64,000 bases of DNA from Cyanobacteria bacterium auto_48_18 (GCA_036170915.1 JAVHQC010000033.1:160001-224000); one strand, 5' to 3'. Shown: positions 12,085-36,388, counted from the first letter of the stretch. Program-made: numbers and translations. The notes: a model not told the origin generated them from the letters alone.

Positions 12085-12795
12085 GTGAGCACCAAGTCGG
12101 TACAGAAAATAGCAAATGCACTTTCAACCGCTCTATTGGCTGTCGCTGCTTTCTCTTGCCCAGTGTTCGCTTATGGCGAATCTGACGTGATGAATACATT
12201 GAGAAGTCCGCTCATCTACGGCGCGCCCAATAGCCCAGCATGGGTGCCCGCCCAGGAAGGTTGCCCACCACCAATCGGTAGTGGCGACTGCCCTTTACCT
12301 GTTACCGGTGGTGATTATGGTGCGCCTTTCCTACCAGTGACTTCAGTGCCAATGCCTCTAGTAGGGCCTCTGGATAAAGCCACGGTCAATGCCTTTGCCG
12401 CTCCCTACTTGTGCCCACCACCTTCAACTCCAGGTTACGACCCTTATTCAATAAATGGTTCGAGTGGAGGTTATGGTGTTAGTGCTCCGGTCTCGGTGGT
12501 TAATGTAAGCCCCGGCGGCGGTTTGGAAGGTAGTGCACCAACTCGTAGATGGAGAGCCCAGCGCTCATTCGACCATGGTCAACCCAACAATGTACGCGGC
12601 AATGGTTCAACCCTCAACGATTTTGGTCAGAAGCTCTGTGATAAACCAGATTTGAAAATGGTCCCGCAAGTTTCACAAGATGGCCCGAGACAACAAGGCA
12701 GCTGGATGGGCCAGACCACACAAGATTTACACGGAAACAGGTCGCTCTTTAAAGGACCAAATCTCCGCTCTCAACTCACAATCGCTCCATATTAA
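12085..12795 (+). CDS. Secreted Pro/Gly-rich protein (paralog of 12864)
   Basis: AAGGAG RBS, signal peptide, LRSPLIYGAPN. Confidence 0.8.
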   Translation: MSTKSVQKIANALSTALLAVAAFSCPVFAYGESDVMNTLRSPLIYGAPNSPAWVPAQEGCPPPIGSGDCPLPVTGGDYGAPFLPVTSVPMPLVGPLDKATVNAFAAPYLCPPPSTPGYDPYSINGSSGGYGVSAPVSVVNVSPGGGLEGSAPTRRWRAQRSFDHGQPNNVRGNGSTLNDFGQKLCDKPDLKMVPQVSQDGPRQQGSWMGQTTQDLHGNRSLFKGPNLRSQLTIAPY

Positions 12796-12863
12796 CTTCA
12801 CGAATTTTTCCCTCGCCCGCCACGCTCAACTTATTCTTTATAACGGCTTCAGGAGGCCAGACA

Positions 12864-13856
12864 ATGTTTAACCGTAAGTTCATCCCCGCAGTATTCTCTG
12901 CAATCACCATAAGTGCCACTTGCGCACTTGCCTCCTCAGCCCAACCGTGGCCAGGCAGCCCACCACAAGTTGGCCCTGCTCCGGTGAGCCCAGTGAGCAC
13001 TTTGCGCACACCATTGATTCAAGGCCAGCCAAACGGCGCGCCGTTCCAGGCACCAATCGAAGGCGCTCCACCAGCGATTGGTGACGGCCCAACTCCAGCA
13101 GGTGTCAACCCAGGTATGGGTGGCTCACCAGAGTTGATGCCATGGGTACCGGCCATTCCAGCCAACCAGATTGACAATAGTTTTTCAGGCATTCCTTTAG
13201 GCATTAGTCCAGCAATCGTTTCTCCTCCTGGAGTATTGGGACCATCGCTGACAGGCATTGTGCCGCAGTCGCCATCAACTCCTGGTGTAGATCCTGGATC
13301 GCTTTCGGCTCCTCCTGGATTCATTAATGCTTCACAGCAAGTCAACATCATGCCTTACGGCGGATTTGCCGGTACTGGTGGATATAACACCACAGTTCCA
13401 ACCGTGCGTCGTGGTGGACAGGAGACTGCCCAGTGGGGATACCGCGGTCGTAACTCAATGATTGGTGGCTTCGGTGGTGACGGTTCGCAAGACAACGTAG
13501 AGCGAATGGGGCCATGGGCCGGCTGGGGCGCTGTAACCGGCGTACCTACAGGTAATGGCTTGAGATCTGGATCTATCGACCTCGGCGGCGGTCAACGCTT
13601 CCAGGCCGGCGGAGCCATCATTCCAACCGGTTCGAGCATTCAAGACTTTGGTCTGTCTGCCACCAGAAACAACCCGATTGGTGCATTGCAAGCTAATCAG
13701 TCTTATGAATTCGGCCAGGGCTTCAGACGGATACCCATGTACAGCAGCAAGACTACTGACTTCGGTTTCCCCTACACCCAGTTCTCACCAGGCAACGTAA
13801 CTGCTCAAAAGACCGGCCAACGTTTGCTTCCAACTGGAGTAATCACCAACTTCTAA
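12864..13856 (+). CDS. Secreted Pro/Gly-rich protein
   Basis: AGGAGG RBS, signal peptide, LRTPLIQGQPN. Confidence 0.8.
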   Translation: MFNRKFIPAVFSAITISATCALASSAQPWPGSPPQVGPAPVSPVSTLRTPLIQGQPNGAPFQAPIEGAPPAIGDGPTPAGVNPGMGGSPELMPWVPAIPANQIDNSFSGIPLGISPAIVSPPGVLGPSLTGIVPQSPSTPGVDPGSLSAPPGFINASQQVNIMPYGGFAGTGGYNTTVPTVRRGGQETAQWGYRGRNSMIGGFGGDGSQDNVERMGPWAGWGAVTGVPTGNGLRSGSIDLGGGQRFQAGGAIIPTGSSIQDFGLSATRNNPIGALQANQSYEFGQGFRRIPMYSSKTTDFGFPYTQFSPGNVTAQKTGQRLLPTGVITNF

Positions 13857-14069
13857 AAAGAAATTGTGTGGCTTAAATTTTGTCCCGGTAATCCGTAAAG
13901 TCGCAAGACTCCAATCCTGCCGGGTTGCCGGGATGAAACTAAATAAAACCCTTAGGGGGGAATTCCCATGATCGTGGGAATCCCCCCGATTTCATTCCTG
14001 GTGGGGGTTTCGTAATATGTATCTAACGAACCGCATTGCGGCACCCCTAGGACAACGGACTCAAGAATC

Positions 14070-14783
14070 ATGAGAAGAGAAGCCCCAACAAACAGAATCG
14101 CTAAATTGGCACTAGCTGTGGCCCTGGTCTCTTGCTTATTCGGGCAGACACTACCTGCGATGGCACAGTACAGTCTGCAAGCTGAGCAAGATGCAATGCT
14201 TCCTCCCGATGTTGTGCCACTAGACCCGGCTGTGGGTCAAAGAATGTCCCAAGCGCAAGCTGCAGCTCGTCAGAACAACGCCAATAATAGCTATAACAAC
14301 GGCCAACAGTCAGCAATGGCTGGTGACCCTTCCATGGCTAATGGCATGTCGAACGGTATGTCTAACGGAATGCCTAATAACATGTCGAATGACCAGGGCA
14401 TGCAAAACAATTTCAACAATCAGTCACAGGGCCAGTTCAACAACATGCAACAGGCCAACAACATGGGTCAGCCTAATGGCAATGCTCCAGGCAGCACCGG
14501 TACATCAGACTGGATCATGCCTAATGGCCAGGACCAAAATGCCCCAATGACCGCTTACGGTAATGTCAGCCAAACTCAAACACTGACTGCACCTCCATCT
14601 AATCCAATCGTACGACGCTCCACTCGCCGCGGCGGGATGGGCACTGCTGTTAGCGCTCTGGCCGGATTCGGCGCCGGCGCTATGGTAGGCACCATGATCA
14701 GACGGCCCAACACGCTGTTCGGTCTCGGCGCTACCGGTCTGTTTATGACCGGCTTCGGTACACGCAACGGCTTCCGGTTTTAG
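14070..14783 (+). CDS. Secreted Asn/Gln/Met-rich protein with a glycine-zipper-like C-terminus
   Basis: Signal peptide AMA-Q; low-complexity middle; AGFGAGAMVG. Confidence 0.78.
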   Translation: MRREAPTNRIAKLALAVALVSCLFGQTLPAMAQYSLQAEQDAMLPPDVVPLDPAVGQRMSQAQAAARQNNANNSYNNGQQSAMAGDPSMANGMSNGMSNGMPNNMSNDQGMQNNFNNQSQGQFNNMQQANNMGQPNGNAPGSTGTSDWIMPNGQDQNAPMTAYGNVSQTQTLTAPPSNPIVRRSTRRGGMGTAVSALAGFGAGAMVGTMIRRPNTLFGLGATGLFMTGFGTRNGFRF

Positions 14784-14809
14784 TTTTCTTTTTGTCTGGA
14801 GACAAGGCA

Positions 14810-15451
14810 ATGAATTTCAAAATTTTTCTTTCTGTAATCGCTCTTGCTGTAACTACTGTTGCTGCTCAACCGGCTGCCCGAGCTGATGAGGGTGGTGGTG
14901 GCAACATGAGATGGAAGTTTGCCCCAAACGTTTACAGACTTGAAGAGCCTACCGGACCACGTCACCATGCTTTTCATGAGCCACCAGCGCAACAAGTGCG
15001 TCGTGGTCAAACTCCTGGTGTACACAATATGCTCGGATTCAACCCAGCAACTTTGAAGAAGCCAGTGGCCGCTGTGCCGCAGCAACAGCCCAATGTCATG
15101 GCTCAACTGGTGCCTCCAGGTTTCAACAATTTGTTTGGCAAACCAACTTCAACTGGTACTGCAGCCACTGCCCAGGCCAAGCCTCTGACAGCTTTGATGG
15201 CTCCTACCGCTTCAACACTTGCACCATCGAGACCAGCCGTCAAAGCGCCTGTGCGTCGTATGGCTAGCAACAACAATGTTATGGCTCGCATGAGACGGCC
15301 TGCTCGCAGTCAATCTCACAATGCCAGCGCCGGACCGATTGCATCGTACGGACAAGGTGTGGGTTACATTCCTGGATCGACCGCTCCTGGCGTAACCGGT
15401 GGAAGTGGTGGTGCCAACGCTACTGTTAACGGTAAGTTGATTCGTCACTAG
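14810..15451 (+). CDS. Secreted basic Pro/Ala-rich protein (paralog of 15532)
   Basis: Signal peptide; WKFAPNVY, IASYGQGVGYIPGST, VNGKLI. Confidence 0.78.
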   Translation: MNFKIFLSVIALAVTTVAAQPAARADEGGGGNMRWKFAPNVYRLEEPTGPRHHAFHEPPAQQVRRGQTPGVHNMLGFNPATLKKPVAAVPQQQPNVMAQLVPPGFNNLFGKPTSTGTAATAQAKPLTALMAPTASTLAPSRPAVKAPVRRMASNNNVMARMRRPARSQSHNASAGPIASYGQGVGYIPGSTAPGVTGGSGGANATVNGKLIRH

Positions 15452-15531
15452 TCCACAGTTAAGCATCAACTGAGAAATACACTCTTCGGGGTGTATTTCT
15501 CGTTTTCTTTTTCTTGAGGGTCGGTATATTT

Positions 15532-16140
15532 ATGAAAATTTTGCCTCTCTTTTTGATTTCGGCAGTGGTCGGCATGGCCAGTATTTCTGTGTCGGTGCCG
15601 GCAGCACAGGCGCAATCTCCGCGCTTTGAATATGCTCCTCATTATTGGGAAAAAGATCAGTCGACGGGAGGTCGTCGCCGCCGTGGCTACAACAATCTGG
15701 CACCACTTGTGCTGCAAAACGTACCGAGCGGAAAAACTGTCAGTGCGCAGAATATGACTGGTGTGGATTTCGCCAATCTGCCTAAACGAAGTGCAGTAGC
15801 CCCTGCGAGGACGACAGCGGTGAATTCTGTGGCGTCAGATTCTGGTGCTTTTGGTAAACCAAACGTACCGGCCGCAGCTCGGGCAGGTTCAATCAGACCA
15901 GGACTGCCGATGACTGCGATGCCTGAATTGGCCACAACTCCAGCAAAGCCAATTAAGGCTGCGAGCAAATCCACTAACGCTTTAAGAAATATAAGCGGCA
16001 AGCGACTGGCAAAACTGCCTACTATCCAAAGCTATCCTCAAGGGGCTGGATATGTGTCCGGCTCGACGGCTCCGGCCTTGTATGGCGTGAATACTAAAGC
16101 AAGGATATCGGTCGGTGGCAAGCTGTTGCCCAAGCATTAG
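15532..16140 (+). CDS. Secreted basic Pro/Ala-rich protein
   Basis: Signal peptide; FEYAPHYW, IQSYPQGAGYVSGST, VGGKLL. Confidence 0.78.
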   Translation: MKILPLFLISAVVGMASISVSVPAAQAQSPRFEYAPHYWEKDQSTGGRRRRGYNNLAPLVLQNVPSGKTVSAQNMTGVDFANLPKRSAVAPARTTAVNSVASDSGAFGKPNVPAAARAGSIRPGLPMTAMPELATTPAKPIKAASKSTNALRNISGKRLAKLPTIQSYPQGAGYVSGSTAPALYGVNTKARISVGGKLLPKH

Positions 16141-17685: not shown

Positions 17686-17867
17686 AAAAAATATTTGAAA
17701 TTTCCGTCTGCCATGGGAATTACCACATATTCAAGGTCGGGGATAAGCCTTATTGTTCATGCATAAGCCAGACGAAGCGATTGCACGGCGGTCACCTGCA
17801 AGTCCTCAAATAAGTCTGACAACCAATTAAATGCAGTTCCAACTAAATATCAGAGGTTTCTTTCACC

Positions 17868-18296
17868 ATGAATAAAGTATCAACCCTAGCCAAGAAAATT
17901 TCCAAGTCGCACTCATTCAAAGTCGCTACCCGCCTGGGATTTGTACTTGCTCCCCAGTTGGTGTTGATGGCCTTTGGAGTTTATGATCAAGCCGCTCACG
18001 CACAAGGTTTGGTTGGCGCACCAGTTGATCCACGTTATGGACAATCAAACGAAGTTGGCCAATTGGCAGACTACGGATATGACTGTGCAAGAGATATTTC
18101 CCGCGTAGTTACTGCTCTGTCCACTGTTCCATCATCTTTAGCCGGCATGAAGATTGCCTTCGGTCAAAGAGACGGCGGTGAGTCAGCAATGAACGTAGCG
18201 AAAGGCCTGGGCATCGGATTCGGCGGACCAACTGCTGTTCACTTGCTCGGAACATTCGCCATCAACAACATGGGCGGTCTGGGTGGCGGTCTCTAA
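17868..18296 (+). CDS. VirB2/TrbC-like pilin, copy 1 (allele A)
   Basis: 45-aa leader ending AHA-Q; two hydrophobic helices around an FGQRD loop; Gly-rich end; upstream of VirB6/VirB4/VirD4-like genes. Confidence 0.7.
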   Translation: MNKVSTLAKKISKSHSFKVATRLGFVLAPQLVLMAFGVYDQAAHAQGLVGAPVDPRYGQSNEVGQLADYGYDCARDISRVVTALSTVPSSLAGMKIAFGQRDGGESAMNVAKGLGIGFGGPTAVHLLGTFAINNMGGLGGGL

Positions 18297-18344
18297 ACCA
18301 AGAGACGCGAAACACCTATATAAAGACTGCTGACGAAAGCTCTC

Positions 18345-18377
18345 GAGAGCCGGGTTTTGGCCCGGCTCTTGCGTTTT
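18345..18377 (+). terminator. Intrinsic terminator after pilin 1
   Basis: GAGAGCCGGG-ttttgg-CCCGGCTCTT followed by a T-rich tail. Confidence 0.7.
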
Positions 18378-18656
18378 GTCCGAATATTGTTCAAATCAGT
18401 CCAGACCCTCGACTACTCACATCAGCTTTTGACTCAACTGGCGTTGGGCGGCTACGTATTTCTCCCACGAATTCCTCGAAATATGAGTAATTTCTCCGTC
18501 TTGCATGGGAATTACCACATATTCAAGGCCGTGGGAAAGTTTTATTGTTCTCCCATAAGCCAGACGAAGCGATTGCATGTCGGTCAACGGCAATCAACAA
18601 ACTGAGTCTGACACCCGCACCAAAGCTGCTCCACGTAATCAGAGGTTTCTTCCACC

Positions 18657-19085
18657 ATGAATAAAGTTACATCCCTCGCTAAAAAAGTTTCTCAGTCTCA
18701 CTCTTTCAAAGTCGCTACCCGCCTGGGATTTGTACTTGCTCCCCAGTTGGTTTTGATGGCTTTCGGAGTATATGACCAGGCCGCTCACGCACAAGGCCTT
18801 GTAGGTGCCCCAGTAGACCCACGTTACGGACAATCAAACGAAGTAGGCCAATTGGCAGACTACGGTTATGACTGTGCAAGAGATATTTCCCGCGTAGTTA
18901 CTGCTCTATCGACTGTTCCATCATCTTTAGCTGGCATGAAAATTGCCTTCGGCCAAAGAGACGGTGGAGAATCGGCCATGAACGTTGCAAAAGGCTTGGG
19001 CATCGGATTCGGCGGACCAACCGCAGTTCACTTGCTCGGAACATTCGCCATCAACAACATGGGTGGTCTGGGTGGCGGTCTCTAA
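18657..19085 (+). CDS. VirB2/TrbC-like pilin, copy 2 (allele B)
   Basis: Identical to copy 1 from residue 14 onward. Confidence 0.7.
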   Translation: MNKVTSLAKKVSQSHSFKVATRLGFVLAPQLVLMAFGVYDQAAHAQGLVGAPVDPRYGQSNEVGQLADYGYDCARDISRVVTALSTVPSSLAGMKIAFGQRDGGESAMNVAKGLGIGFGGPTAVHLLGTFAINNMGGLGGGL

Positions 19086-19117
19086 TTCGAGACAGTTCGC
19101 TCATCGAAAATAAGTTT

Positions 19118-19143
19118 AAAAGCCGGGCCCAGCCCGGCTTTTT
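19118..19143 (+). terminator. Intrinsic terminator after pilin 2
   Basis: AAAAGCCGGGC-cca-GCCCGGCTTTTT. Confidence 0.85.
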
Positions 19144-19201
19144 GCTGTGTTGATGGTCTTGCGCGGTTGGCTAGGGGGCCTCTAATAGATAGTTCCAAAA
19201 C

Positions 19202-19230
19202 GCAGAGAAAAATTGCGCAAATTTCTCTGC
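19202..19230. repeat. 29-bp palindrome, copy 1
   Basis: GCAGAGAAAAATTGCGCAAATTTCTCTGC. Confidence 0.85.
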
Positions 19231-19406
19231 TTGATTAAGTGCAGAAAAAAACTTTTCGCACTTCGTGTTTTCCACATATTCAGGCCGGTGGGAAAAAGCT
19301 ATTGTTCACACATAAGCCGGACGAAACGCAAATCCAATAATGATTTCAGCAAATCGCAACCGACAAACTCTTCGCTCCTATCTACAACTAGAGGTTTTCT
19401 TTCACC

Positions 19407-19835
19407 ATGAATAAAGTTGCATCCCTCGCTAAAAAAGTTTCGAAGTCGCACTCTTTCAAAGTCGCAACACGCCTGGGATTTGTACTTGCTCCCCAGTTGG
19501 TGTTGATGGCCTTTGGAGTTTATGATCAAGCCGCTCACGCACAAGGTTTGGTTGGCGCACCAGTTGATCCACGTTATGGACAATCAAACGAAGTTGGCCA
19601 ATTGGCAGACTACGGATATGACTGTGCAAGAGATATTTCCCGCGTAGTTACTGCTCTGTCCACTGTTCCATCATCTTTAGCCGGCATGAAGATTGCCTTC
19701 GGTCAAAGAGACGGCGGTGAATCAGCAATGAACGTAGCGAAAGGCTTGGGCATCGGATTCGGCGGACCAACCGCAGTTCACTTGCTCGGAACATTCGCCA
19801 TCAACAACATGGGCGGCCTGGGTGGCGGTCTCTAA
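19407..19835 (+). CDS. VirB2/TrbC-like pilin, copy 3 (A/B mosaic)
   Basis: Identical mature protein. Confidence 0.7.
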   Translation: MNKVASLAKKVSKSHSFKVATRLGFVLAPQLVLMAFGVYDQAAHAQGLVGAPVDPRYGQSNEVGQLADYGYDCARDISRVVTALSTVPSSLAGMKIAFGQRDGGESAMNVAKGLGIGFGGPTAVHLLGTFAINNMGGLGGGL

Positions 19836-19878
19836 TTAGAGGCTCAACCGTTCAGACTCTCTGCAAAAAAGCTCTAAT

Positions 19879-19906
19879 GAGCCGGGTTCTGCCCGGCTCT
19901 TGCTTT
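19879..19906 (+). terminator. Intrinsic terminator after pilin 3
   Basis: GAGCCGGGT-tct-GCCCGGCTC followed by TTGCTTT. Confidence 0.7.
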
Positions 19907-20184
19907 ATCTAGTTATGACGACTATGTAGAGCTCGTTCGAACAATTTGAAAGCGCGACGGAATCAAGTTCCACTTGACTTCGTAATGCCACCATGAAAAT
20001 CTCTGAAAATGAGCAAAATTGCCGTTTGCCATGGGAATTACAACATATCCAAGGCCTCCGCAAAGCCTTATTGTTGTCCCATAAGCCAGACGAAGCGATT
20101 GCATGTCGGTCAACTGCAAATCAACAAATTAAGTCTGACACCCGCACTAAAAGCTGCTCCACGCAATCAGAGGTTTCTTCCACC

Positions 20185-20613
20185 ATGAATAAAGTTACAT
20201 CCCTCGCTAAAAAAGTTTCTCAGTCTCACTCTTTCAAAGTCGCTACCCGCCTGGGATTTGTACTTGCTCCCCAGTTGGTTTTGATGGCTTTCGGAGTATA
20301 TGACCAGGCCGCTCACGCACAAGGCCTTGTAGGTGCCCCAGTAGACCCACGTTACGGACAATCAAACGAAGTAGGCCAATTGGCAGACTACGGTTATGAC
20401 TGTGCAAGAGATATTTCCCGCGTAGTTACTGCTCTATCGACTGTTCCATCATCTTTAGCTGGCATGAAAATTGCCTTCGGCCAAAGAGACGGTGGAGAAT
20501 CGGCCATGAACGTTGCAAAAGGCTTGGGCATCGGATTCGGCGGACCAACCGCAGTTCACTTGCTCGGAACATTCGCCATCAACAACATGGGTGGTCTGGG
20601 TGGCGGTCTCTAA
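20185..20613 (+). CDS. VirB2/TrbC-like pilin, copy 4 (allele B)
   Basis: Same sequence as copy 2; start set by homology and the GAGG RBS. Confidence 0.7.
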   Translation: MNKVTSLAKKVSQSHSFKVATRLGFVLAPQLVLMAFGVYDQAAHAQGLVGAPVDPRYGQSNEVGQLADYGYDCARDISRVVTALSTVPSSLAGMKIAFGQRDGGESAMNVAKGLGIGFGGPTAVHLLGTFAINNMGGLGGGL

Positions 20614-20645
20614 TTCGAGACAGTTCGCTCATCGAAAATAAGTTT

Positions 20646-20671
20646 AAAAGCCGGGCCCAGCCCGGCTTTTT
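20646..20671 (+). terminator. Intrinsic terminator after pilin 4
   Basis: Same hairpin as at 19118. Confidence 0.85.
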
Positions 20672-20743
20672 GCTGTGTTGATTGTCTAGTTTGGCGTCGA
20701 TTTGATAGTCGATTGGATGGTTTGAATATGCTGTGTCCAAAAC

Positions 20744-20772
20744 GCAGAGAAAAATTGCGCAAATTTCTCTGC
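20744..20772. repeat. 29-bp palindrome, copy 2
   Basis: GCAGAGAAAAATTGCGCAAATTTCTCTGC. Confidence 0.85.
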
Positions 20773-20860
20773 TCTATTAGAGGAGGGATAACCGGGGTGC
20801 CAAAATTGGCGCCAGGGCTTACTGTAATAAAACCGCAAAACTTTTTTGGAAGCGAAAATC

Positions 20861-21343
20861 ATGACTATCTTAACTGGCCCAATTCCATCTGTGCCGCGTT
20901 CGCTAAAACAAAGATTGGCGATTTTTGCTGGGCTGCTACTTATTTGTGATTTCTCCACCGGCATTTTGGTCGACTGGGCGAATACGCCATTTTGTGAAAC
21001 TCGTGCTGATGCTAAAGCCCTTCGGTCAAGTTCCTGTGACCGATTCGGAAAGACGACACTTGTCTTGGAGCAGGCCGAAAACAATCTTGATGCAGTCGCT
21101 CAAGATATTGAACAGCAGGTGTGTCCTGGTAGTACCGAACCGGCACACCGCCTCTGCTTTCATTCCCACGATACGGCTTGTATTCTTGCAGCCAATTTGG
21201 AAGACATCGCATACACACGAATGATTCGAGTGCAGAATCGATTGGCAAAAATCATGCAACATCCGTGGCACACAAATTGCCAGCTATACGACGGTGTTGT
21301 CCCTAAATGCCCACTCAGCTTAATCTTATGGATTTTAGGCTAA
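20861..21343 (+). CDS. Cys-rich membrane-anchored protein resembling the VirB6-like N-terminus
   Basis: GKTTLVLEQAENNLDAVAQDIEQQVCP aligns with GQTTLVQQQAEQNTEAVAQNVEQQLWP of 22377. Confidence 0.65.
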   Translation: MTILTGPIPSVPRSLKQRLAIFAGLLLICDFSTGILVDWANTPFCETRADAKALRSSSCDRFGKTTLVLEQAENNLDAVAQDIEQQVCPGSTEPAHRLCFHSHDTACILAANLEDIAYTRMIRVQNRLAKIMQHPWHTNCQLYDGVVPKCPLSLILWILG

Positions 21344-21409
21344 TTTGATCGTGATAGAAAAGTTTGCGCGCATTTCCCTGTGTGCACGCAGGTACAAGGA
21401 TGCGAGATA

Positions 21410-21880
21410 GTGATTAATCTAACCAGCCCTACTCAATTTGTGCAGCGTTCGTTAAAGCAAAAATTCGCGACACTGGCAGGTCTCTTACTAGTTTGTGATT
21501 TTTCGACCGGCATTTTTGTCGAATGGGCGAATACGCCGATCACGTGCGAGCATTTTGCTATTTTGGGGAAGTCACAGGTATTAGGTTTTCCCTGTTGCGA
21601 TGCATCTGGGCGAACAACATTGGTCCGACAAGAAGCTGAAAATAATTCTGAATGCGTATCGCAGCTGTTAGATATCCAATTAAATCCAAGTGACAGTTGT
21701 TTGGATGGTCTATCTTTCTGCAGCGATAATATCCTCACAAATTTTTTCGAGAATGTTCCCATATATTGCCGTCAAGTCGTAAGCCACCGACTCGGAAAAG
21801 TCCAATGCCGGCTGTTATCGTTAATCAAATTACCGCACTCGTGCCACAGAGGCTGTCCTTTGACGAAGGCTCTCTTCTGA
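21410..21880 (+). CDS. Cys-rich paralog of 20861
   Basis: RSLKQKFATLAGLLLVCDFSTGIFVEWANTP shared with 20861; GTG start after AAGGA. Confidence 0.65.
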   Translation: MINLTSPTQFVQRSLKQKFATLAGLLLVCDFSTGIFVEWANTPITCEHFAILGKSQVLGFPCCDASGRTTLVRQEAENNSECVSQLLDIQLNPSDSCLDGLSFCSDNILTNFFENVPIYCRQVVSHRLGKVQCRLLSLIKLPHSCHRGCPLTKALF

Positions 21881-22014: not shown

Positions 22015-22376
22015 GTTTTGGAAAGTCAAAATTAACTACCACCCAGGCAGCCAAAAAACACCAAACAAAAATCATTTATCAAAACGCCTCTAGGATGGGA
22101 ATGACCGGGGTGTCAAAACCCACAAGGGGCCTTAAAGTAATATCAGCATCGTGCTGACGTGTGCTTGCGAAGGTCTAAAAAATCTAAACAAGTAAAAATA
22201 TCCCCCGAAAGCCTTAACAGGACATTAAAAGATGCCTGTTTTGCCCGCAGAATGGGAATAACCACACTGACAAGTTTTTATTTTGGCACTAGAGTGTTTT
22301 ACACGAGATACTTTTGCCGGCCTCATAGAGCCCAATAAGCAGTCTTTACTTTCTTTTTTTAAAGCAAAAAACCACA

Positions 22377-25300
22377 GTGGATAACGGAAACAGTCAAGCC
22401 AGTTTTAAAAGACGCTTTCACAAGCAATTATTAGCGCTCGTGGCACTCCTCATGCTGCTTGCGCCATTCGCATTTGCAGTACCGGTGGTGCTGGCGCAAA
22501 CTATGGTGCCTTCGCCAAACGATGATTTCCTTCCAACTGACGGCGGTTCAACCAGTCCTGGCGCCAGCGCGACTCAACCTACTGCCGAAAATATTTACGA
22601 CGCTCCTGGTCAAACCACGTTAGTTCAACAGCAAGCTGAGCAGAACACAGAAGCTGTGGCGCAAAACGTCGAGCAACAATTATGGCCTGATTTTGGTGCT
22701 TATAACGAGACCTATCAGGGCTTAAGCGCATTCTGGGGAGACGACATCATCTCCAACTTCTTCGCCAATATTGGTCAGTTGATTGGTAAATGGCTAAGTG
22801 AATTTATCAACGGTTGGGTCGCAGATGCTGTGCAATTCCTCACCGGCTTCTTGCGCATCTTTGTACTTAACCCCAACATCGCCGTCAACGGATTGAGCAC
22901 TACACCTGGCCAACCAGGTGCCGCCATTGACGATATTTCGCCTTACGTTCGTCAAGGCGCCGATATCATGTACGGTATCGCCATCGATTTGCTCTTATTG
23001 CTCTTCATTCTCTGCATCTGGAAATATTGGGCCGAAGCTGCCTGGCGCGGCGGCGGCAACATGATGGGTGCAGTTGGTCGTCTGATTTTCACTTCCGGTC
23101 TGCTTTTAGCCTGGCCGACAATTTACGCTTTTGAAATTCAGATCACCAACGAAATGATCAAGGCGCTCTATTTCAACTCTGCTGACCAGGTGGCAATGCT
23201 TGATGCCGCTATGGCCGCTGCTGTCAAAGGCGGTCTCGTAGCTGGTGCCGGCTTGTTGGCCAATGCTACTGCACCTATCGCCGGCCAAGTGCTGGGTGGT
23301 GTGCTCGGCGGTGGCGCTGGTGGTATTGTTTTGGGAACGGTTGGTAGCCTGGTTGCCTTTGTTGGTCTGATTATTTACTTAGTGCTGGGCGGCATTTTGA
23401 TTGCCCAACTAATTTATATTCTTGTGCTCAAGGCCATTCAAACTGCTTTGCTCACCGCTCAATATATGTTCGCACCTCTTTTCCTCGTCTTCTTCGCTTT
23501 GCCTGACACTGAAAATGTCTGCTCCGGATTCGTGCGCTCATTTGTTGAAGTCAGCCTCTGGACCTTTGTCTGGGTAGGCATGCTCAAAATTATGGTAATT
23601 GTGGTTCTTTCCGACTTTAACCCGTGGGGCAAAATCGTTATGGCCGTGGGCGTTCTGCAGCTCATGATTCAAGTGCCGTCGTTCTTGGCTCGCGCACAGA
23701 TTTCACCAATGTCAGATTTCATCTCTGCTGGTCTGGTCACTGGTGGTTTGCTCTCAGGTGGTAAGGCTCTAAGTGGAATGCTTGCAGATCGCGGTAAACA
23801 CTTTGCCAATGCCGTGGGTAACTTTGGTTATGCCGGAGCAAAAGGTGCTCCAAAATCACAAAGCGTAGAACTTAACGGTTTGGCTAATGACGTTGCCAAT
23901 CCAGGACTATTGAAAGATATTCGAGGCGCAGCAGCCACAGGTCAAGTTCCTGGTAAAGACGGCAAAAAGCCGCCACCCGGCGCTGGTGGTCTTGGAGCTG
24001 ACGGTAAACCAATCAAGCCACCAGAAGGTCCTAAGGGGCCAAAAGATGGTAAGGGTGGTGCTGGTATAGGACCAGACGGCAAACCAATCGCGCCTGCGGC
24101 CAATCCACTTGGAGCTAAAGGAGCCAAAGGCGAAGGCGAGCAGGGCACCAGTGCCAATGTCGTTCCGCCCGGAACTAAACCAATAACACCAGCTAATCCT
24201 GGCGATAAGAGTGCAGCTGAAGCTCTGGCCAACGCAGGGAAGAACGGCGCTACGGTGGCCGCAGTGGCTGGCGTGGTCGGAGCAGGCATGGCAGCAGCAG
24301 GCGCAAATGGTGCTCTGTCTGAAGCCAACAAAGCGGCTGGAACTGGTGATCAGACCGGTAAAGATTTGAGCGCGCAACAGCTTGCCGAAGCGGCGAAAGC
24401 CACAGGCAACCTAGTTAATGCCGCCGGCAATTTGACCGACGGCAAAGGCAAAGAGCTGCTTGACTCTAAAGGCCAACCTATTAAGGCGACTGTGCCGCCG
24501 GCAGCTGGCGACAAAGGTAAAGCTGGCGAAGTATTAAAAGACCAGGCTACAGTCAGCGCTAAACTGGCTGACGGTAAAGATGCTGCCGGAAAAGTAAATG
24601 GCCCTGAAGCCACAGCCAAAGGCAAAGATCTTGCTACCGGAATCAAGCCTGGTGACTTGCCTAAGGCCGGTGGAGTCGGCACAAACACTGATGGTGCCAG
24701 CCTGAAGACAGCCGGCGATGAAGTCGAAGTTACCGGTCAGAACGAAGATGGCACCAAAGCAGTGGCATCAGCAGTGGTGCCTGGCATGAAGGTAGCTAAT
24801 GCTACAACTACCGGCGCGCCTAATGCTAATCTCAACCCTGACGGCTCTACAAAAACTACTGTTGATGGCGGCAAACCCGGCGGCACAGGCGCCAAGCTTG
24901 AAACAGTCAAAGGCGAGACCAATGTTGTTCCCAAACCTGGTGTCAATCCTGTTGCCACAGGTAACGGTAACAAACCGGTTGTGCCACCAATTAACTCTTC
25001 TCAGCTAGCCACCGCCACTAGTGCCATCGCCACTGGTAAGGGTATTGATCCAACTACAGCAATTGTCACCGGCGACGAAACTTTGAACCCTGCCGATCCT
25101 GGGGCTCCAGTTGTCGCTGATGCTAAAGAAGGAACATTCAATAATAAGCAAGGCACAAACAATGCCGCTACTGCAGCTACTGCTCTAGCAACAGCAGCTA
25201 CAGTTGTGGCGGGTTCAGCAGCGCTGAAGAATGCTGCCACTTCCCCTCAAGGAAAAGTCGAAACCAACGTCACCGGCAAGGTGACAGGCGACGGCTCTAC

Positions 25301-28300
25301 TACTGGTAAACCTGGTAGTGTCGTTCCTCCAGTTGGCGCAGCAGCCAATTTACAGACTAACACCCCTGCTTCAACAACTGGTGTTAACGCCGCAGGCGCT
25401 CCTGTGGTCAATGCCACCACTGAGACAGTTGAAGAAGGGCAGCAAGCTGCAAGCGTGCTTGGAGCCGAAACCAATAAATTGGGCACCACAACTCCTGGCG
25501 TCAATAGTGCCAATCCAGCAGCTACTCTGGCTACAGCAGCCACAGTGATGGCAGGTTCTGCAGCGCTTAAAAATGCTGCCACCTCACCTCAACAAAAAGT
25601 TGAGACCAACACGACGGCCAAAGTTGTAGGCACCGGTACTGGCACTGGCAGTGTCGTCCCACCAGTGGGCGGAAACCCACTACAGACTAATGCCAACCCT
25701 GTTAATGGAATCAACAACCCTGCAGGCACTCCTGTGGTCAGTACCAATACTGAAACACTTGAAGAAGGGCAGCAAGCTGCAAACGTGCTTGGAGCCGAAA
25801 CCAATAAATTGGGCACCACAACTCCTGGCGTCAATAGTGCCAATCCAGCAGCTACTCTGGCTACAGCAGCCACAGTGATGGCAGGTTCTGCAGCGCTTAA
25901 AAATGCTGCCACCTCACCTCAACAAAAAGTTGAGACCAACACCACAGCTAAAGTTGTCGGCACGGGTACCGGAGCCGGCAGTGTGGTCCCACCAATGGGC
26001 GGGAATCCACTACAGACTAATGTCAACCCAGTTACTGGAGTCAACAATGCAGGCGCTCCGGTAGTCACCAATACCGAATTAGTTGAAGAAGGTCTTGAAG
26101 CAGCCGGAGCGTTGGGCGCAGCCAATGTCGTTCGGGCCACAGGGGCCACCACTATGCCTGGTGCTAACAAATTAGACAATGCCACCGGCACTACCACCAC
26201 TACATCTGCCACCGGCAAGATAGTGCCGCCGACGAACCAAACAGCTAATCCAACTGTGACTACTCAGGTCACCGGTGCTAAGGGGGCAGGTATTGTGCCT
26301 CCCGTAGCTACACCTACTCAGTTTGCCAATACCACTGGTGGTACCGGCGGCGCACCACCTACGGCTGGAACTGCAACTAAATTTATGGATGGCGGTGACG
26401 GCGGCGACGGTGGAGATGATGGTAGCGGCGGTGCTGGTGGTGGTGGTGGTGGTATGCCACCAGGTGGACCTGCAGCTCAACCTACTCAGCCTAGCGGCGG
26501 CCAGAAAGCTTCGATGTTTGATGGTTATATGCAAGCCGGTTACAGACACGTGCCTTACAGAGTCGCCGCAGCAGCCATCAGATTGGCTCAAGGCGCCACT
26601 CTGGGTGTGTCACGCAGTGGTAAGCCAGAAAACATCTACGATAATCAAGGCCACATGATGCACGTCCGCTTTGGCGAAGGCGCGTCTGATGAGCAAAAAG
26701 GTATGCAAATCATGGCCGGCGCTTACGGCGAGTTGATGAGCACCGATGCCGAAGCTTATGACGCAGCCAGACAGTCATCTATTGATGCCGGCGAGCATAA
26801 ACCGCAATCAATGGCTGAAAGAGCCGCTGCTGGTATTTTGGCTTATAACGGCAGTTCATGGAGTCAAACTGCTGCCGCCAAACAAAGATTTGCCCGCTCT
26901 ATGTCTAAGCATGCGGCACTTGGTGCTCAGTCTTACATTAATGGTGAAGAAGGCAACGCTTACACCGAGCACCTGGTCAACAGATACGGACCAATGAGTG
27001 AAGACCAGCAAGCTTGGGCTGCTCACATTATGACCAGCACCGATTCGCCAGAATCTGGATGGAGCTGGAGAATGGGCCCTGCCACTGATGCTCTCATCCA
27101 GAGTGGTTTGCCAATCAGCCCTGTCAACAGAGCCGTGGCTGCCAACCAGAGCGTGCTCAAAGCACAGCCATGGTTGCGTGGAGCTGCCATTCGTGGTGGT
27201 GGCGAGTATATGCAGGCTCGTGCGAAGGCTGAAATTCCTGAAGGTACAAGTGGACTGGTGCAAGATGCCTGGTACGGCAACCGTGCACAATCTATGCCTG
27301 CTGAAGTTGTGAATACACTTGGTGCATTGACCCTGGCTGGAATCATGGATGAGGATGGCCATTCCGTATGCCGCGACTTCGCCACAGTAGACCAAGTAGC
27401 TGCCATGGTCGGCCCTGGTGCTAGACCTGAAGATTATGTAGGCGCTTACAACACCCTGCACGGCGGCAGCAAAGTCATGGCCAACTTCGTCCCTAGCGGG
27501 GGCGGTGGTGGTGGTGGCGGCGGTGGTGGCCATGTCAATTTGGGCAGCGCTCACATGGGTGGCGGATCACCTCCTCCGTCTGGTGGTGGTGGTATGACCC
27601 TCGGTGGTGTCACTGTATCTGGTGGCGGCGGTGGTGGTGGCGGCGGCGGCACAGCCGACGTTGATCTCTTCCTCGACGGCCCTTCTGCAGGCGCATCGAA
27701 CATCAACCCTAACGCTATTCCTCTACCTAATAACTTGCCTAACTTGCAAGGCGGTGGGCCAACTGTGGTCAACTCCCGCTTGCAACCTCCAAGCAATCAA
27801 GGCGGCGGCGGCAACGTCAATCTTGGCTCAGTTAAACTGCCTGGTGGTAATGTCGGATCTTCCACCGGTCAGATTCAAATCGGCCGCGTCGATGGTGGCA
27901 ACAGTGGTGGCAGCGGTAGTTTGCCCAGCGAAAATGTTTCCATGGACGTCGAGCAGTCTGTATCTGGTCAGGTTGTAGATTATGGCGGCGCTCAACAGCA
28001 AGCCATATCCAGTGCCGTCAGTCAATTTGGCGGTTCGCAAAATCTGGTCAAGCAAGTGGTGGCAGATTTGAGAGCCAGTGGGATGGATTGGAAACAAATT
28101 TACGATCCCACTAAGAGTGATTCGGATCCTGGTAAATATCAGTTGCTCGAAACCGCTGTTCAAGCCTACTCACAAAATCCGGAATCTATGCCGGCTGTGG
28201 CAGTGGCTGCTCAAGCTGTGGGTGCCTCTAATGTTTCCATGGGTGATGTGCAAATTGTTCAATCAATGTTTGACGCTGATCCTAAGTGGCAGTCCAATAA

Positions 28301-28568
28301 CATTGATTACGGCGCGGTCTATACTGCCAGAGCGATTGTTGACGCTCACAGTACCGATCCGCAAACATACGGAACGCCTTATCTGAGCAAAGATTATGTC
28401 GATTCCGTACGCCAGGATCCTCGCTTCGTGCCAAGACCGGTGCCTGTTCGCGACCAGTCTGGGTCCGTAGCCAGATATGATCAATCGCCTGTGCCGAAAG
28501 ATCGCCTGGTCAAGCGTATGATGGAACGGATGTTGGGCCAGGATGGCTACAACAACGGTAATGGTTGA
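22377..28568 (+). CDS. Giant VirB6/TrbL-like T4SS membrane protein with a repetitive Gly/Ala/Thr C-terminal extension
   Basis: Polytopic N-terminal ~450 aa (YMFAPLFLVFFALPDT); located between pilins and VirB3/VirB4-like genes. Confidence 0.75.
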   Translation: MDNGNSQASFKRRFHKQLLALVALLMLLAPFAFAVPVVLAQTMVPSPNDDFLPTDGGSTSPGASATQPTAENIYDAPGQTTLVQQQAEQNTEAVAQNVEQQLWPDFGAYNETYQGLSAFWGDDIISNFFANIGQLIGKWLSEFINGWVADAVQFLTGFLRIFVLNPNIAVNGLSTTPGQPGAAIDDISPYVRQGADIMYGIAIDLLLLLFILCIWKYWAEAAWRGGGNMMGAVGRLIFTSGLLLAWPTIYAFEIQITNEMIKALYFNSADQVAMLDAAMAAAVKGGLVAGAGLLANATAPIAGQVLGGVLGGGAGGIVLGTVGSLVAFVGLIIYLVLGGILIAQLIYILVLKAIQTALLTAQYMFAPLFLVFFALPDTENVCSGFVRSFVEVSLWTFVWVGMLKIMVIVVLSDFNPWGKIVMAVGVLQLMIQVPSFLARAQISPMSDFISAGLVTGGLLSGGKALSGMLADRGKHFANAVGNFGYAGAKGAPKSQSVELNGLANDVANPGLLKDIRGAAATGQVPGKDGKKPPPGAGGLGADGKPIKPPEGPKGPKDGKGGAGIGPDGKPIAPAANPLGAKGAKGEGEQGTSANVVPPGTKPITPANPGDKSAAEALANAGKNGATVAAVAGVVGAGMAAAGANGALSEANKAAGTGDQTGKDLSAQQLAEAAKATGNLVNAAGNLTDGKGKELLDSKGQPIKATVPPAAGDKGKAGEVLKDQATVSAKLADGKDAAGKVNGPEATAKGKDLATGIKPGDLPKAGGVGTNTDGASLKTAGDEVEVTGQNEDGTKAVASAVVPGMKVANATTTGAPNANLNPDGSTKTTVDGGKPGGTGAKLETVKGETNVVPKPGVNPVATGNGNKPVVPPINSSQLATATSAIATGKGIDPTTAIVTGDETLNPADPGAPVVADAKEGTFNNKQGTNNAATAATALATAATVVAGSAALKNAATSPQGKVETNVTGKVTGDGSTTGKPGSVVPPVGAAANLQTNTPASTTGVNAAGAPVVNATTETVEEGQQAASVLGAETNKLGTTTPGVNSANPAATLATAATVMAGSAALKNAATSPQQKVETNTTAKVVGTGTGTGSVVPPVGGNPLQTNANPVNGINNPAGTPVVSTNTETLEEGQQAANVLGAETNKLGTTTPGVNSANPAATLATAATVMAGSAALKNAATSPQQKVETNTTAKVVGTGTGAGSVVPPMGGNPLQTNVNPVTGVNNAGAPVVTNTELVEEGLEAAGALGAANVVRATGATTMPGANKLDNATGTTTTTSATGKIVPPTNQTANPTVTTQVTGAKGAGIVPPVATPTQFANTTGGTGGAPPTAGTATKFMDGGDGGDGGDDGSGGAGGGGGGMPPGGPAAQPTQPSGGQKASMFDGYMQAGYRHVPYRVAAAAIRLAQGATLGVSRSGKPENIYDNQGHMMHVRFGEGASDEQKGMQIMAGAYGELMSTDAEAYDAARQSSIDAGEHKPQSMAERAAAGILAYNGSSWSQTAAAKQRFARSMSKHAALGAQSYINGEEGNAYTEHLVNRYGPMSEDQQAWAAHIMTSTDSPESGWSWRMGPATDALIQSGLPISPVNRAVAANQSVLKAQPWLRGAAIRGGGEYMQARAKAEIPEGTSGLVQDAWYGNRAQSMPAEVVNTLGALTLAGIMDEDGHSVCRDFATVDQVAAMVGPGARPEDYVGAYNTLHGGSKVMANFVPSGGGGGGGGGGGHVNLGSAHMGGGSPPPSGGGGMTLGGVTVSGGGGGGGGGGTADVDLFLDGPSAGASNINPNAIPLPNNLPNLQGGGPTVVNSRLQPPSNQGGGGNVNLGSVKLPGGNVGSSTGQIQIGRVDGGNSGGSGSLPSENVSMDVEQSVSGQVVDYGGAQQQAISSAVSQFGGSQNLVKQVVADLRASGMDWKQIYDPTKSDSDPGKYQLLETAVQAYSQNPESMPAVAVAAQAVGASNVSMGDVQIVQSMFDADPKWQSNNIDYGAVYTARAIVDAHSTDPQTYGTPYLSKDYVDSVRQDPRFVPRPVPVRDQSGSVARYDQSPVPKDRLVKRMMERMLGQDGYNNGNG
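25170..26100 (+). repeat. Intragenic ~330-bp (~110 aa) tandem repeats
   Basis: ATAATVxAGSAALKNAATSPQ x3; near-identical DNA blocks starting at 25431 and 25761. Confidence 0.9.
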
Positions 28569-28620
28569 TAATTCAATCGTTACCAATGCTAGCGGCTGAT
28601 AAAACAGCAAAGTCAAAGCC

Positions 28621-29295
28621 ATGAAGTTCTTTAAACTGCGCCATCTGACAGTGGTCTGTCCTGAATGTCAAACAATTTTCGCCACTTATGAAGTGGCAAG
28701 AATGCCTGCCATCGACCCCACTACTCCCGTTGAGAGCGACTTGCATCGCATTTTACCTGATGCCGAATTACGCTCAAGTTTGCTTGCCATGTGTCCTAAT
28801 TGCATCTACACCTGGTGGTTGTCATCGTTTAAGGAGCATTTTTATCTGCCGCAAGTGGTGCCTGACAGCCCGCCTACAGAACCGGCAAAAAAGTTCGCCC
28901 ATGCCGTGGCTTCGGGTCGTAAACATAATGTGCACGCCCTAGATAAAGCAGTGCTCGCTTTAAATGGTTACTGGTGTGCCAAAGAACAAGGGGTGGACGG
29001 CAGCAGATTTCTTGCCCTGGCCAAGTCAGAGCTGCAAACGGCCTTAAACGATGACAGCTGGGCCGGCAACCGTAGTCGCTACAACTATGTTATGGGCGAG
29101 ATTGCGAGACTTACCGGTGACTTTGCTCTAGCGGTTAATCATTTTGAGAAGGTCGATAAAACTGCGGGTCTTCCCACTGAGCTGGTTTCTAAGATGCAGG
29201 AGTTCGCAGTTTCTGGGAATAAAAGCAGTGTAAGGCTTCCACCACATATCGTAGGTATGATTTTTGTTCCTGGCCACCGTGGGGCCGTCAGTTGA
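28621..29295 (+). CDS. Zn-finger plus TPR-like protein (DUF2225-like)
   Basis: CPECQT..CPNCIY; YVMGEIARLTGDFALAVNHF. Confidence 0.65.
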   Translation: MKFFKLRHLTVVCPECQTIFATYEVARMPAIDPTTPVESDLHRILPDAELRSSLLAMCPNCIYTWWLSSFKEHFYLPQVVPDSPPTEPAKKFAHAVASGRKHNVHALDKAVLALNGYWCAKEQGVDGSRFLALAKSELQTALNDDSWAGNRSRYNYVMGEIARLTGDFALAVNHFEKVDKTAGLPTELVSKMQEFAVSGNKSSVRLPPHIVGMIFVPGHRGAVS

Positions 29296-29331
29296 CCGTT
29301 TAAAAGCCAAGTTTTTAAGTAGAATGAAATT

Positions 29332-29670
29332 ATGGATGACATTACACCTCTAAACTTAGAAGACGCTCCCAAGTTATTTGGTATGCGTTTTGATCAGCTG
29401 TTCGCGATTCTTGCCAGCTTGATTGTTTCCACGCAGCTTTATTCGTGGATGAATCCGCTCATGTTCAATGGGCAAGATCTCAGGCTCTATATATGTCTGT
29501 TTTTCGGCATCCTTGGCCCTTTCTACTGTTTGGTTACTCTCAACCATTCAGCATCCTACTGGGAGACTTTGCTCAATTTTTATACCGGCTCACAAGTGCT
29601 GATTCCTGGGCCTGATCCAAATCCTGTCAGGTTTTTGACTGACGAAAAACTGCCGGAATTTATTGATTAA
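29332..29670 (+). CDS. PrgI/VirB3-like small membrane protein
   Basis: PLNLEDAPKLFGMRFDQL plus two TM helices, directly upstream of the VirB4-like gene. Confidence 0.65.
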   Translation: MDDITPLNLEDAPKLFGMRFDQLFAILASLIVSTQLYSWMNPLMFNGQDLRLYICLFFGILGPFYCLVTLNHSASYWETLLNFYTGSQVLIPGPDPNPVRFLTDEKLPEFID

Positions 29671-29688
29671 AGGAGTTCTGCTTACTTA

Positions 29689-32514: not shown

Positions 32515-32515
32515 T

Positions 32516-33157
32516 ATGTATATGTTTGATTATCAAGCCGGTGAGAAATACAAAATGACTTTGATTACTGTCGGGCTAGCCGGGGTTATGGCTGGCGCGG
32601 CGTTGACGCTTTTTCTTTCACCTCAAAGTTCTGGGCCACCTTCGAAGACGAGGCCGAGGACACGGGTTGAGTCAGATCCTGATGTCACTGGTCAGGCGCG
32701 CCCAGTGGGAGGGCGTTATTTGAATCAGGGGCAGACGCCGGCTACTCCACCACCTAATGCCGCAGATATGGTGCAGCCAAATGCTGCTACCGAAATTGTC
32801 AAAGGCTTTTTGCCTCTGGCCTGGGATTTTTCATCAGCTTCCGCCCAAAATTCGCAAACATCAGCCATGAACCTGATGACGCCTGAGTGCGCGCAAAATT
32901 ATCAAACCAGTGTGTGGACTCCTGAAGTGGCCCAGGGCATTCTCGGATCTGGCATCAAAAGTAATTTCAATCAAACCATGGTGGCGGCAGGGCAGAATTT
33001 GCAAGATGGCTCTATCGAAGTGACAGTGCGCGGAACGCTGGATATGACTTTGCCTGACCAGCCGCCCACCAGTAAACCGTGTAACTATATCTATTTAGTG
33101 AAGAAGGTTAATGGGCAGCTAAAAATAGCTGGTATCAGCGAAGGTCCAGCGTCATGA
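32516..33157 (+). CDS. Bitopic membrane protein, VirB8/TcpC-like
   Basis: N-terminal TM and NTF2-like C-terminal pattern (YLVKKVNGQLKIAGI); operon position. Confidence 0.5.
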   Translation: MYMFDYQAGEKYKMTLITVGLAGVMAGAALTLFLSPQSSGPPSKTRPRTRVESDPDVTGQARPVGGRYLNQGQTPATPPPNAADMVQPNAATEIVKGFLPLAWDFSSASAQNSQTSAMNLMTPECAQNYQTSVWTPEVAQGILGSGIKSNFNQTMVAAGQNLQDGSIEVTVRGTLDMTLPDQPPTSKPCNYIYLVKKVNGQLKIAGISEGPAS

Positions 33158-33325
33158 TCGAGGCCACGAGAAAACATCAGTTGTGGCATGATAATAGAAA
33201 GGCTTGGTAGAAATACGAAACTTTTGGTAGATAATCGCTTCTCTTTTCGTATTCACCGCAGAACTGGTGCGGGTTTTGTTGTGCAACTACTTGTATAAAA
33301 GGTATAAGTAAGTAACGATCAATTT

Positions 33326-36300: not shown

Positions 36301-36388
36301 CCAAACCAGACGGCCCATGACCAGCCTCAACCCTGATGTTTCCCATTTGGGCCTCGACCCAACAAAGAAGCCTGGCGTAGAGTTCTAA
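33326..36388 (+). CDS. virD4: VirD4/TraG-like type IV coupling protein
   Basis: TM segment, Walker A APSGSGKT, WNPL, Walker B FFDEY, ILQNISQI, TAKFFSEEIG. Confidence 0.85.
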   Translation: MSEETSMKWVAQINERGLISSYRDMDSNEQISAREYERRMQMQGSVGAPYEGGGSLQASPYPQTYSQAPVQYNGAQQYQSPVQPAQMPLQQPIQTGGQPSSYSQMGYPPQSYPTAIPQPVQQPPSPLIQQGASLVGADGGPPPIPRPTTGLVPTMGQAVQGKNLRLEGRPEHSQQVQNFAPRKGKGFLDATSIAILMPTLVLLALIIAAAHKKRLFPWQTIRTFNPPSGLMTPRDYERSYVCPPNGRRHGRMGGKNPNATWTESDGVVIPFGFLARTHLPVTIPMGRLPNKNMFIVAPSGSGKTTLMRAVIKALLAKPCVIIALEAKANDPNLDERREGFKYTVLPEAEHAGFRTLYFNPLDADSICWNPLDQDAVTFATSIVQDINSLEAEEQHWAERDLGYIEGLTQLLKWGGVQVMGEDENGQPSQLDPLPCNPYGLMKLVNNRRNIVESLRKLKADPNINAGELGELTQRLSSIIRTDSDWDKNIQGVRGRLRMFKNRAILKATEKSNVDLKTSMHQPTVLIFGAPASLGPDAESLAACFVHQMQQALHTRYGTKSVLPLFAFFDEYQTLNIDLAGRLSAIVRGANGGLTIILQNISQITSGGASVAPELKTIFSNSAVRVCLHNADETTAKFFSEEIGKHAVVVPGIADHFQANGFGIFPTSWNRIHSQQVVARVDTDSIKRMEKHHALVYLSPAGDPEFGETKPFMVDLRGIEEIAKLHLLHNVSARRHAGDGDDSSSGTGGGGAGGSGNGAPAAPSFATPAGSLPFPSREDIGNVAARGAELADAAPGPITAPGFVSPVIQTGSNALLGSQTGSNPVMQAPINGMGHGNGNGSAAAPANNGASRICPNCTKLAGKGKFCIECGQFIGLPQAVEATVTASTSAEVIGSNGGGGNILNGGGSLPNPMPATNGIIPSYAEANPSNSSNGPAVDSMGNVIDGSDGQLSAIPGQQATPRYGGLRPQTREAMPSKRGLFENGGGNPEPNLNQTRRPMTSLNPDVSHLGLDPTKKPGVEF

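Follow-up and report, generated by a model that had tools for sequence, protein, structure and literature searches.

We report a gene present in four tandem copies in Cyanobacteria bacterium auto_48_18 (GCA_036170915.1) and propose that its product is probably the major VirB2-like pilin of a type IV secretion-like system that is chromosomal and passed on vertically. The four genes lie in a 64,000-nucleotide window (JAVHQC010000033.1:160001-224000; the whole stretch that was analyzed), where they occupy the place of VirB2 in a VirB4/VirD4 cluster carried on the chromosome of the Obscuribacterales, non-photosynthetic relatives of cyanobacteria. We put the probability of this reading at about two in three, with leader processing, filament formation and dosage as its putative parts. 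The array itself is a variant of ordinary dosage amplification, and the new part would be the use of the pilin as an integrated decoy, which we propose tentatively.

The leader of the pilin-like protein is basic and then hydrophobic and ends in AHA, with a predicted cut site. A first structure model built from a shallow alignment was poor (predicted local distance difference test, pLDDT, 51), and the AlphaFold model of the mature domain (pLDDT 77) showed a helical hairpin (helices at residues 24-53 and 58-89) with a disordered N-terminal segment. The named ESM language-model neighbours of the pilin were DUF4134, TrbC/VirB2 and DUF2976 at 0.88-0.90, all from one source, with 176-178 shared features at 0.89-0.90; DUF4134 and DUF2976 we take to be pilins of Bacteroidota and of integrative and conjugative element systems. 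In all eight other genomes with a stretch reaching VirB4, the pilin precedes the VirB6-like, VirB3-like, VirB4, VirB8-like and VirD4 genes; in one more genome it adjoins the VirB6-like gene, and in G018 other genes are inserted between them. Within the cluster, the VirB6-like label was given from position and membrane segments, without a family match, the VirB3-like label from position and size, and the VirB8-like label from a weak TraE match. From the helical hairpin, the place in the cluster and the language-model neighbours, the protein is likely a member of the VirB2 family.

Several results weigh against this assignment. The pilin had no Pfam or NCBIfam match, and the TrbC model matched one of 77 family members (E 0.026). 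The TrbC, T4SS_pilin and DUF4134 models (PF04956, PF18895 and PF13572 were tested) missed the pilin in the genome. The fold searches listed no pilin, the best scores (E 2.2, Z 7.1) going to generic hairpins, and the pilin hairpin is weakly hydrophobic. A sequence search against solved structures also gave zero matches. Both ends of the mature domain are invariant, which is compatible with head-to-tail cyclisation as in T-pilin and RP4 TrbC. We propose that the 45-residue leader is cut after AHA to leave a two-helix membrane hairpin with invariant periplasmic ends, which VirB4 would extract and polymerise.

Of 99 other genomes of the order, 94 had the mature pilin domain; of 201 other genomes of the class, none did. 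Named homologs were mostly from Obscuribacterales/Melainabacteria, and searches of viral contigs, plasmids and phages gave no pilin match. The 117 homolog clusters were at least 90% identical in the mature domain, single-copy genomes included, and the invariance is therefore order-wide and not a product of the array. Among 15 multi-copy genomes, the mature copies were identical in seven and 1-4 residues apart in eight, at a synonymous divergence (dS) of 0.07-2.7. Paralogs within genomes showed 0-4 differences per 97 mature residues and thus did not form diversified arrays. A 2-copy array lies within the single-contig genome G003.

Full pilins at 90-95% identity also occur in four records titled Heliomicrobium, Bryobacterales, Proteobacteria and Chloroflexota (L094, L121, L124 and L142). 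Three of these records coincide with Obscuribacterales handles by coordinates; the titles therefore seem to be mislabels, and the records were left out of the foreign-carrier counts. A divergent stand-alone pilin-like gene, about 30% identical, was seen at G000:C10:206335-206751, and such 'minor' forms of 120-160 amino acids were common.

Parts of the pilin were also found inside longer proteins. Six long proteins keep the true pilin core, with 52-65 of the last 69 residues retained. Two are TIR-membrane proteins, two are BlaR1-M56 proteins, one is a Ser/Thr kinase and one is a TIR-nSTAND1-membrane-WD40 protein (P0181). They join an effector domain, a membrane segment and a pilin copy in one chain, with one TIR member below the membrane-segment threshold. 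In P0181 the hairpin lies within the propeller and the N-terminal motif follows two blades later; three hydrophobic or glycine positions of this hairpin are changed to charged residues. A homolog of P0181 is identical at 126 of 172 positions, and 15 other loci found with P0181 have no pilin insert. The TIR, M56 and STAND parts of the core carriers had no match in this genome. The P0181 N-terminus was found in none of 107 Obscuribacterales genomes at E 1e-30, and the host search gave none of 251 Planctomycetota at E 1e-100. The nearest genome match of the TIR part was an alphaproteobacterial metagenome-assembled genome (MAG), at 52%.

One Planctomycetota MAG carries two leaderless, recoded mini-genes among high-GC genes on contigs of 79 and 40 kb, and has no match to the VirB4 of the cluster. 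It was alone in this among 401 Planctomycetota and 121 relatives searched. The GC content at third codon positions of the mini-genes was 0.87 and 0.81, against 0.35-0.76 in 86 other cores, and the core of the first differs from its nearest pilins at 0-2 residues, yet at 34-37 of 213 nt. Reuse outside the lineage looks real but is rare. The foreign-looking fusions and mini-genes could instead be chimeric contigs or neutral debris of transferred DNA, as their rarity would suggest (six long core carriers, 1/401 Planctomycetota genomes and 1/121 relatives), and most carriers sit on contigs of 1.5-9 kb. However, each of three families is represented by two diverged members (197/298, 126/172 and, in the M56 part, 90/358), the fusion joins are in frame, and neither chimerism nor debris suits the recoded mini-gene core, its base composition and its long contigs. 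We consider this explanation unlikely, if still a serious one.

Inside the lineage, 68 long proteins match pilin residues 44-90; 50 of them have a VIT domain and 62 end in the glycine-rich terminus of the pilin. Resident VIT carriers keep both pilin ends, with the core swapped for ordinary hydrophobic helices and a basic loop (median charge +4 versus +1); the two resident fusions tested keep 20-24 of the last 69 pilin residues. This genome has one VIT-type carrier (C5) and one protein with the motif only (C31), making two long carriers. The pilin domain is also carried by 22 proteins of a Cys-rich family, and three further long proteins join the pilin motif to the VirB6-like N-terminal segment. 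The N-terminal motif lies inside the alpha-2-macroglobulin bait region of G004, G005 and G014, where it differs from the pilin genes of the same genome at 15-26 of 72 nt. The two macroglobulin baits read in this genome have neither this motif nor that of the second family described below. In two of the four genomes that have both a variant pilin and a VIT fusion, G214 (five diagnostic residues) and G024, the fusion mirrors the variant pilin of the genome; the G002 and G230 fusions do not follow it. A mobile DNA element was considered for the N-terminal motif and dropped: carriers were 12-26 of 72 nt from the pilin genes with the peptide retained.

A second small family of leader-plus-hairpin proteins (the C6 family) occurred in every genome of the order searched (61 of 61). 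It too forms protein-identical tandem arrays; tandem arrangement is frequent, and within the conserved part the copies differ by 0-2 residues but by as many as 34 nt. It terminates another VIT protein (C11), its motif is present in one macroglobulin bait, and the VIT protein of C31 bears the motifs of both families in tandem. Profile comparison did not show homology between the two families (probability 0.3%; 30 of 1000 shuffles as good). The second family has no Pfam pilin match and its arrays are not beside a VirB4 cluster, and 'pilin' is therefore read from its anatomy only. Its array locus in this assembly breaks at the end of C25.

The mature domain could alternatively be a PEP-CTERM-like sorting or anchoring tag, both ends of which are read by a lineage enzyme or secretion machine that displays fused cargo (VIT proteins, Cys-rich proteins) at the envelope or on the pilus; the most abundant tag carrier would then be the free protein. 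Resident VIT carriers do resemble the sorting-signal families sorted_by_XrtN, MSEP-CTERM and marine_srt_targ (below cut-off), and 62 of the 68 long carriers share one glycine-rich terminus. No exosortase was found in the genome, which is 86% complete (PF09721 was not found; other sorting enzymes were not searched for). The tag leaves unexplained the motif in macroglobulin baits and WD40 loops, the two motifs in tandem on one VIT protein, and the carriers in a genome without the VirB4, and the replaced core of the resident fusions argues against their co-assembly into a filament. We regard this sorting role as rather improbable.

Our own proposal for these fusions is a tentative one, which we rate clearly short of an even chance: the pilin would be reused as an integrated decoy or bait, and the invariant pilus used against or on other bacteria. 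The pilin could become a target because it is abundant, exposed and unable to change. The VIT proteins and macroglobulins of the lineage itself, bearing pilin ends, and other sensors, bearing the hairpin, would then act as bait or decoy. Neighbours may have captured the pilin gene, such that the hairpin in TIR, NLR-like, BlaR1 and kinase receptors clusters and fires when incoming pilin co-assembles with it, and their leaderless mini-pilins may jam or mimic the incoming pilus. Outsiders have an almost unaltered packing core, which co-assembly would require, while the VIT proteins and macroglobulins of the lineage would retain the exposed ends as bait for pilus attackers or processors; they discard the core, as bait barred from its own filament would.

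Three points count against the decoy part: diversification might be expected of a pilin that is sensed, there are few foreign carriers, and a sorting-tag role fits the VIT fusions about as well. A survey of macroglobulin baits found the pilin motif at 0 of 30 loci and the motif of the second family at one of 30. A literature search, partial in coverage and excluding supplements, gave no report of this cluster or of pilin copies in VIT proteins, macroglobulin baits or TIR/STAND receptors. If true, the decoy reading would mean that integrated-decoy immunity has a counterpart in bacteria and would be evidence from genomes that an uncultured order is an attacker, and the invariant pilin as bait would be a sequence-level handle on the unexplained secretion system of this abundant order. 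Small constructs (TIR plus pilin, mini-pilin) make it testable in laboratory bacteria.

The coordinates of the array and its surroundings are given in Table 1. The original prediction, made on the window sequence, had claimed that the four 142-residue open reading frames (ORFs) change only within the first 13 residues, and this was correct: residues 5, 6, 11 and 13 hold the sole amino-acid differences. The many synonymous changes it had noted between the A and B alleles amount to 33-39 codons. A1 and A2 are 16 nt apart and B1 and B2 0 nt. For the mature domain, A versus B gave a dS of 0.40-0.47 with zero residue changes, the single 'non-synonymous' step in the count being a counting path inside one Leu codon, and the claim of strong purifying selection stands. 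A very abundant product had also been predicted; the high-expression codon use of the pilin agrees, ranking above all 2325 ORFs of at least 300 amino acids in the genome, on a score built on three reference genes, with short genes noisier, which counts against leaning on it. RNA runs gave two and three low-depth contigs of a related strain, one across a promoter region, and were uninformative on expression. The predicted AB-AB duplication was borne out by start spacings of 1539 and 1528 and by two terminator types that alternate across the array (18344, 19118, 19879 and 20646). The spacers of the AB units are just 70% alike overall and 55% in their first half, and the duplication is therefore older than coding identity suggests.

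Table 1. Features of the pilin-like array, the surrounding cluster and the second family (positions in the window unless a contig is named).
Feature	Position	Strand	Basis
Upstream block of exported low-complexity proteins	12085..16140	+	
A1 promoter element: quasi-palindromic operator-like box, -35-like hexamer, 17-bp spacer, -10-like hexamer	17714..17756	+	putative function, from spacing and conservation
Pilin-like gene A1 (45-residue leader ending AHA, 97-residue mature domain)	17868..18296	+	ORF, 142 aa
A-type intrinsic terminator, after A1	18344..18371	+	
B1 promoter element	18506..18548	+	
Pilin-like gene B1	18657..19085	+	ORF, 142 aa
B-type terminator, bidirectional hairpin, after B1	19118..19142	+	
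A2 promoter element; hexamers and 17-bp spacer retained, operator-like box degenerate	19263..19305	+	
Pilin-like gene A2; B-type at several 5' sites	19407..19835	+	ORF, 142 aa
A-type terminator, after A2	19879..19899	+	
B2 promoter element	20032..20074	+	
Pilin-like gene B2	20185..20613	+	ORF, 142 aa
B-type terminator, after B2	20646..20670	+	
Two ORFs of 165 and 166 aa, similar at about 40%; the first has a segment in common with the VirB6-like N-terminus	20846..21880	+	
Promoter element ahead of virB6-like gene; likely source of pilin promoters	22253..22295	+	
Rest of cluster: VirB6-like, Cys-pair protein, VirB3-like, VirB4, VirB8-like, VirD4	22377..36388	+	
VirB4	29689-32514	+	Pfam/NCBIfam
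VirD4	33326-36388	+	Pfam/NCBIfam
Second family loci	G000:C6:22772-23308; C25 contig end; C32:79953; C34:9433; G003:C1:969976-974392		

Each gene had been predicted to have its own leader and terminator. The terminators are confirmed; the 'leaders', judged from sequence, are probably copies of the virB6 promoter, which several lineages would have acquired separately through tandem duplication. A conserved upstream element stands ahead of 4/4 window pilins, complete in three and with a degenerate box in A2. Single pilins of other genera (52 loci) had the element within 500 bp downstream in 27/49 and within 260 bp upstream in 0/49, at a background rate of 0.0009 per 500 bp. Seven arrays from three genera (G004, G005, G010, G012, G014, G024 and G214) have an operonic first copy without the element and later copies with it. 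G024 and G214 come from other genera that have pilin variants of their own, and the three G024 copies group in a separate starred clade; the expansions are therefore independent. The element precedes both copies in six 2-copy arrays of the genus and in G187. Against promoter capture stand the duplications in G016 and G206, which lack it, and the fact that the promoter pattern was fitted after the sequences were seen. A sigma-70 scan missed the pilin promoters and detected the virB6 promoter alone, and Rfam had no family for the element, with one chance-level match. Elsewhere, an operator-like box as at the pilins and near-consensus hexamers precede a 264-residue Arg/Tyr/Gly-rich gene without a Pfam match (G000:C24:20376), a possible regulon member.

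In most relatives the ancestral pilin gene is the last gene of the upstream exported-protein operon; in the window two unrelated genes (16149-17685) lie between that block and A1. The pattern suggests that unequal recombination duplicates a unit of pilin, terminator and downstream virB6 promoter; the unit includes that promoter, and each extra copy would therefore be a separate, co-regulated transcription unit. All copies would build one filament, which would enforce the same sequence through dosage and through deviant subunits poisoning assembly, while occasional conversion would homogenise the coding parts. Duplicating the gene together with the promoter of the next operon is, as the array shows, a simple and recurrent way to obtain more pilin. 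Selection for dosage had been predicted; purifying selection was upheld, whereas invariance is not owed to the array, and dosage as the selected trait would be the plain reading, although poisoning by deviant subunits would yield the same identity.

Recurrent near-neutral duplication, with dosage unselected and identity kept only since deviant subunits are dominant-negative, would fit a copy number of 1-4 among relatives with many single-copy genera, and the gene fragments beside the array. It would not account for position-specific paralogs that persist across species with high dS and intact promoters, and neutral copies would lose promoter or frame more often, altered 3' ends being seen only in G187. 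We find this account improbable. In G187 (L174:5294-6334) both copies depart from the family frame at the same point near the 3' end, perhaps through sequence errors or by a real truncation.

The four copies are real, and contigs of two runs support that number. Contigs of run X1, which may be the source sample, match each unique spacer exactly at 12-16x, the same as the flanks, with 23.9x at the B 3' end, and run X2, from a related strain, gave diverged contigs across all three spacers. B1 equals B2 along an exact 518-bp tract, which is probably a partly collapsed consensus, because run X1 holds a B variant with six changes, all synonymous, at single-copy depth. An assembly artefact, to which that identical tract and the lack of any contig or read spanning the array would point, is very improbable in view of the three distinct spacers, the X1 contigs at flank depth, the diverged X2 contigs and the arrays in 14 other genomes.

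The two ORFs between the array and the virB6-like gene are likely remnants of partial duplications. ORFs with the VirB6-like N-terminal segment between the pilins and virB6 were also seen in G003 (L035:16625-18865) and G012 (L050:11749-13101), and the segment terminates some VIT/vWA proteins (P0186, P0187 and P0310). A second chromosomal VirB4 cluster (G000:C1:924-18165; VirB4 28% identical) has VirB6-like, VirB3-like and Cys-pair genes and an upstream operator-like box, with VirD4 absent nearby; the two-VirB4 state also occurs in G025. A 17-bp tandem repeat of four to five copies lies ahead of the virB6 promoter (21835-21919). An extragenic palindromic repeat of about 35 bp occurs in the window at 19194-19237, 20736-20779, about 21987-22023 and about 37655, and genome-wide on most contigs, often as inverted pairs. 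Farther out, a RES-domain gene with an Xre/MbcA-like partner is inserted after mgsA (9389-10638), an insertion that G003 lacks there, and a Replic_Relax (PF13814) gene (52167-53057) lies 16 kb downstream of VirD4. A cluster at 39272-51498, also present in G003, holds two ParA/CooC-like ATPases and Fur-like regulator, GNAT, phytoene-desaturase-like, SufS-like, cysteine-synthase-rhodanese and decarboxylase-like genes, labeled by eye.

Abundant proteins of invariant sequence that are encoded by several gene copies, such as tufA/tufB, are kept by dosage, purifying selection and occasional conversion, and the pilin array itself belongs to this class. Plant NLRs with integrated decoys, and macroglobulins with their bait regions, incorporate into a receptor or trap a copy of the target or subunit of an attacker; here the setting is bacterial, the integrated part is a pilin, and the decoy function is putative. 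Compared with VirB2/TrbC pilins (PF04956), whose general anatomy is covered in PMC3556328, the present protein is likewise small, with a long leader, a two-helix hairpin and a place in a VirB4 cluster. Unlike them, it has a 23-residue polar invariant N-terminal segment and a glycine-rich C-terminus, it has no significant sequence or fold match, and its gene is chromosomal and near-universal in one order. The Attar/Namtar anti-conjugation systems, membrane defence proteins dependent on VirB2 or VirB8, are a precedent for pilins as immune triggers; however, no domain has been characterised in them, the cells on which they act carry plasmids, and no pilin copy inside a receptor is reported in the accessible part of that source (bioRxiv 10.64898/2026.07.06.735840). 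A relative is a predator, for which PMC4451040 proposes the use of another system, of the T type. The VirB2 arrays of Patescibacteria, Anaplasma and Bartonella likewise consist of tandem pilin genes at a chromosomal type IV secretion system. The Patescibacteria arrays have a mean identity of 25% and at most 54% (PMC12102498) and those of Anaplasma are diversified (PMC3556328), whereas the present copies share 96-100% of their mature-domain residues, have a promoter and a terminator apiece, and so are, as originally predicted, the opposite of a diversified VirB2 array.

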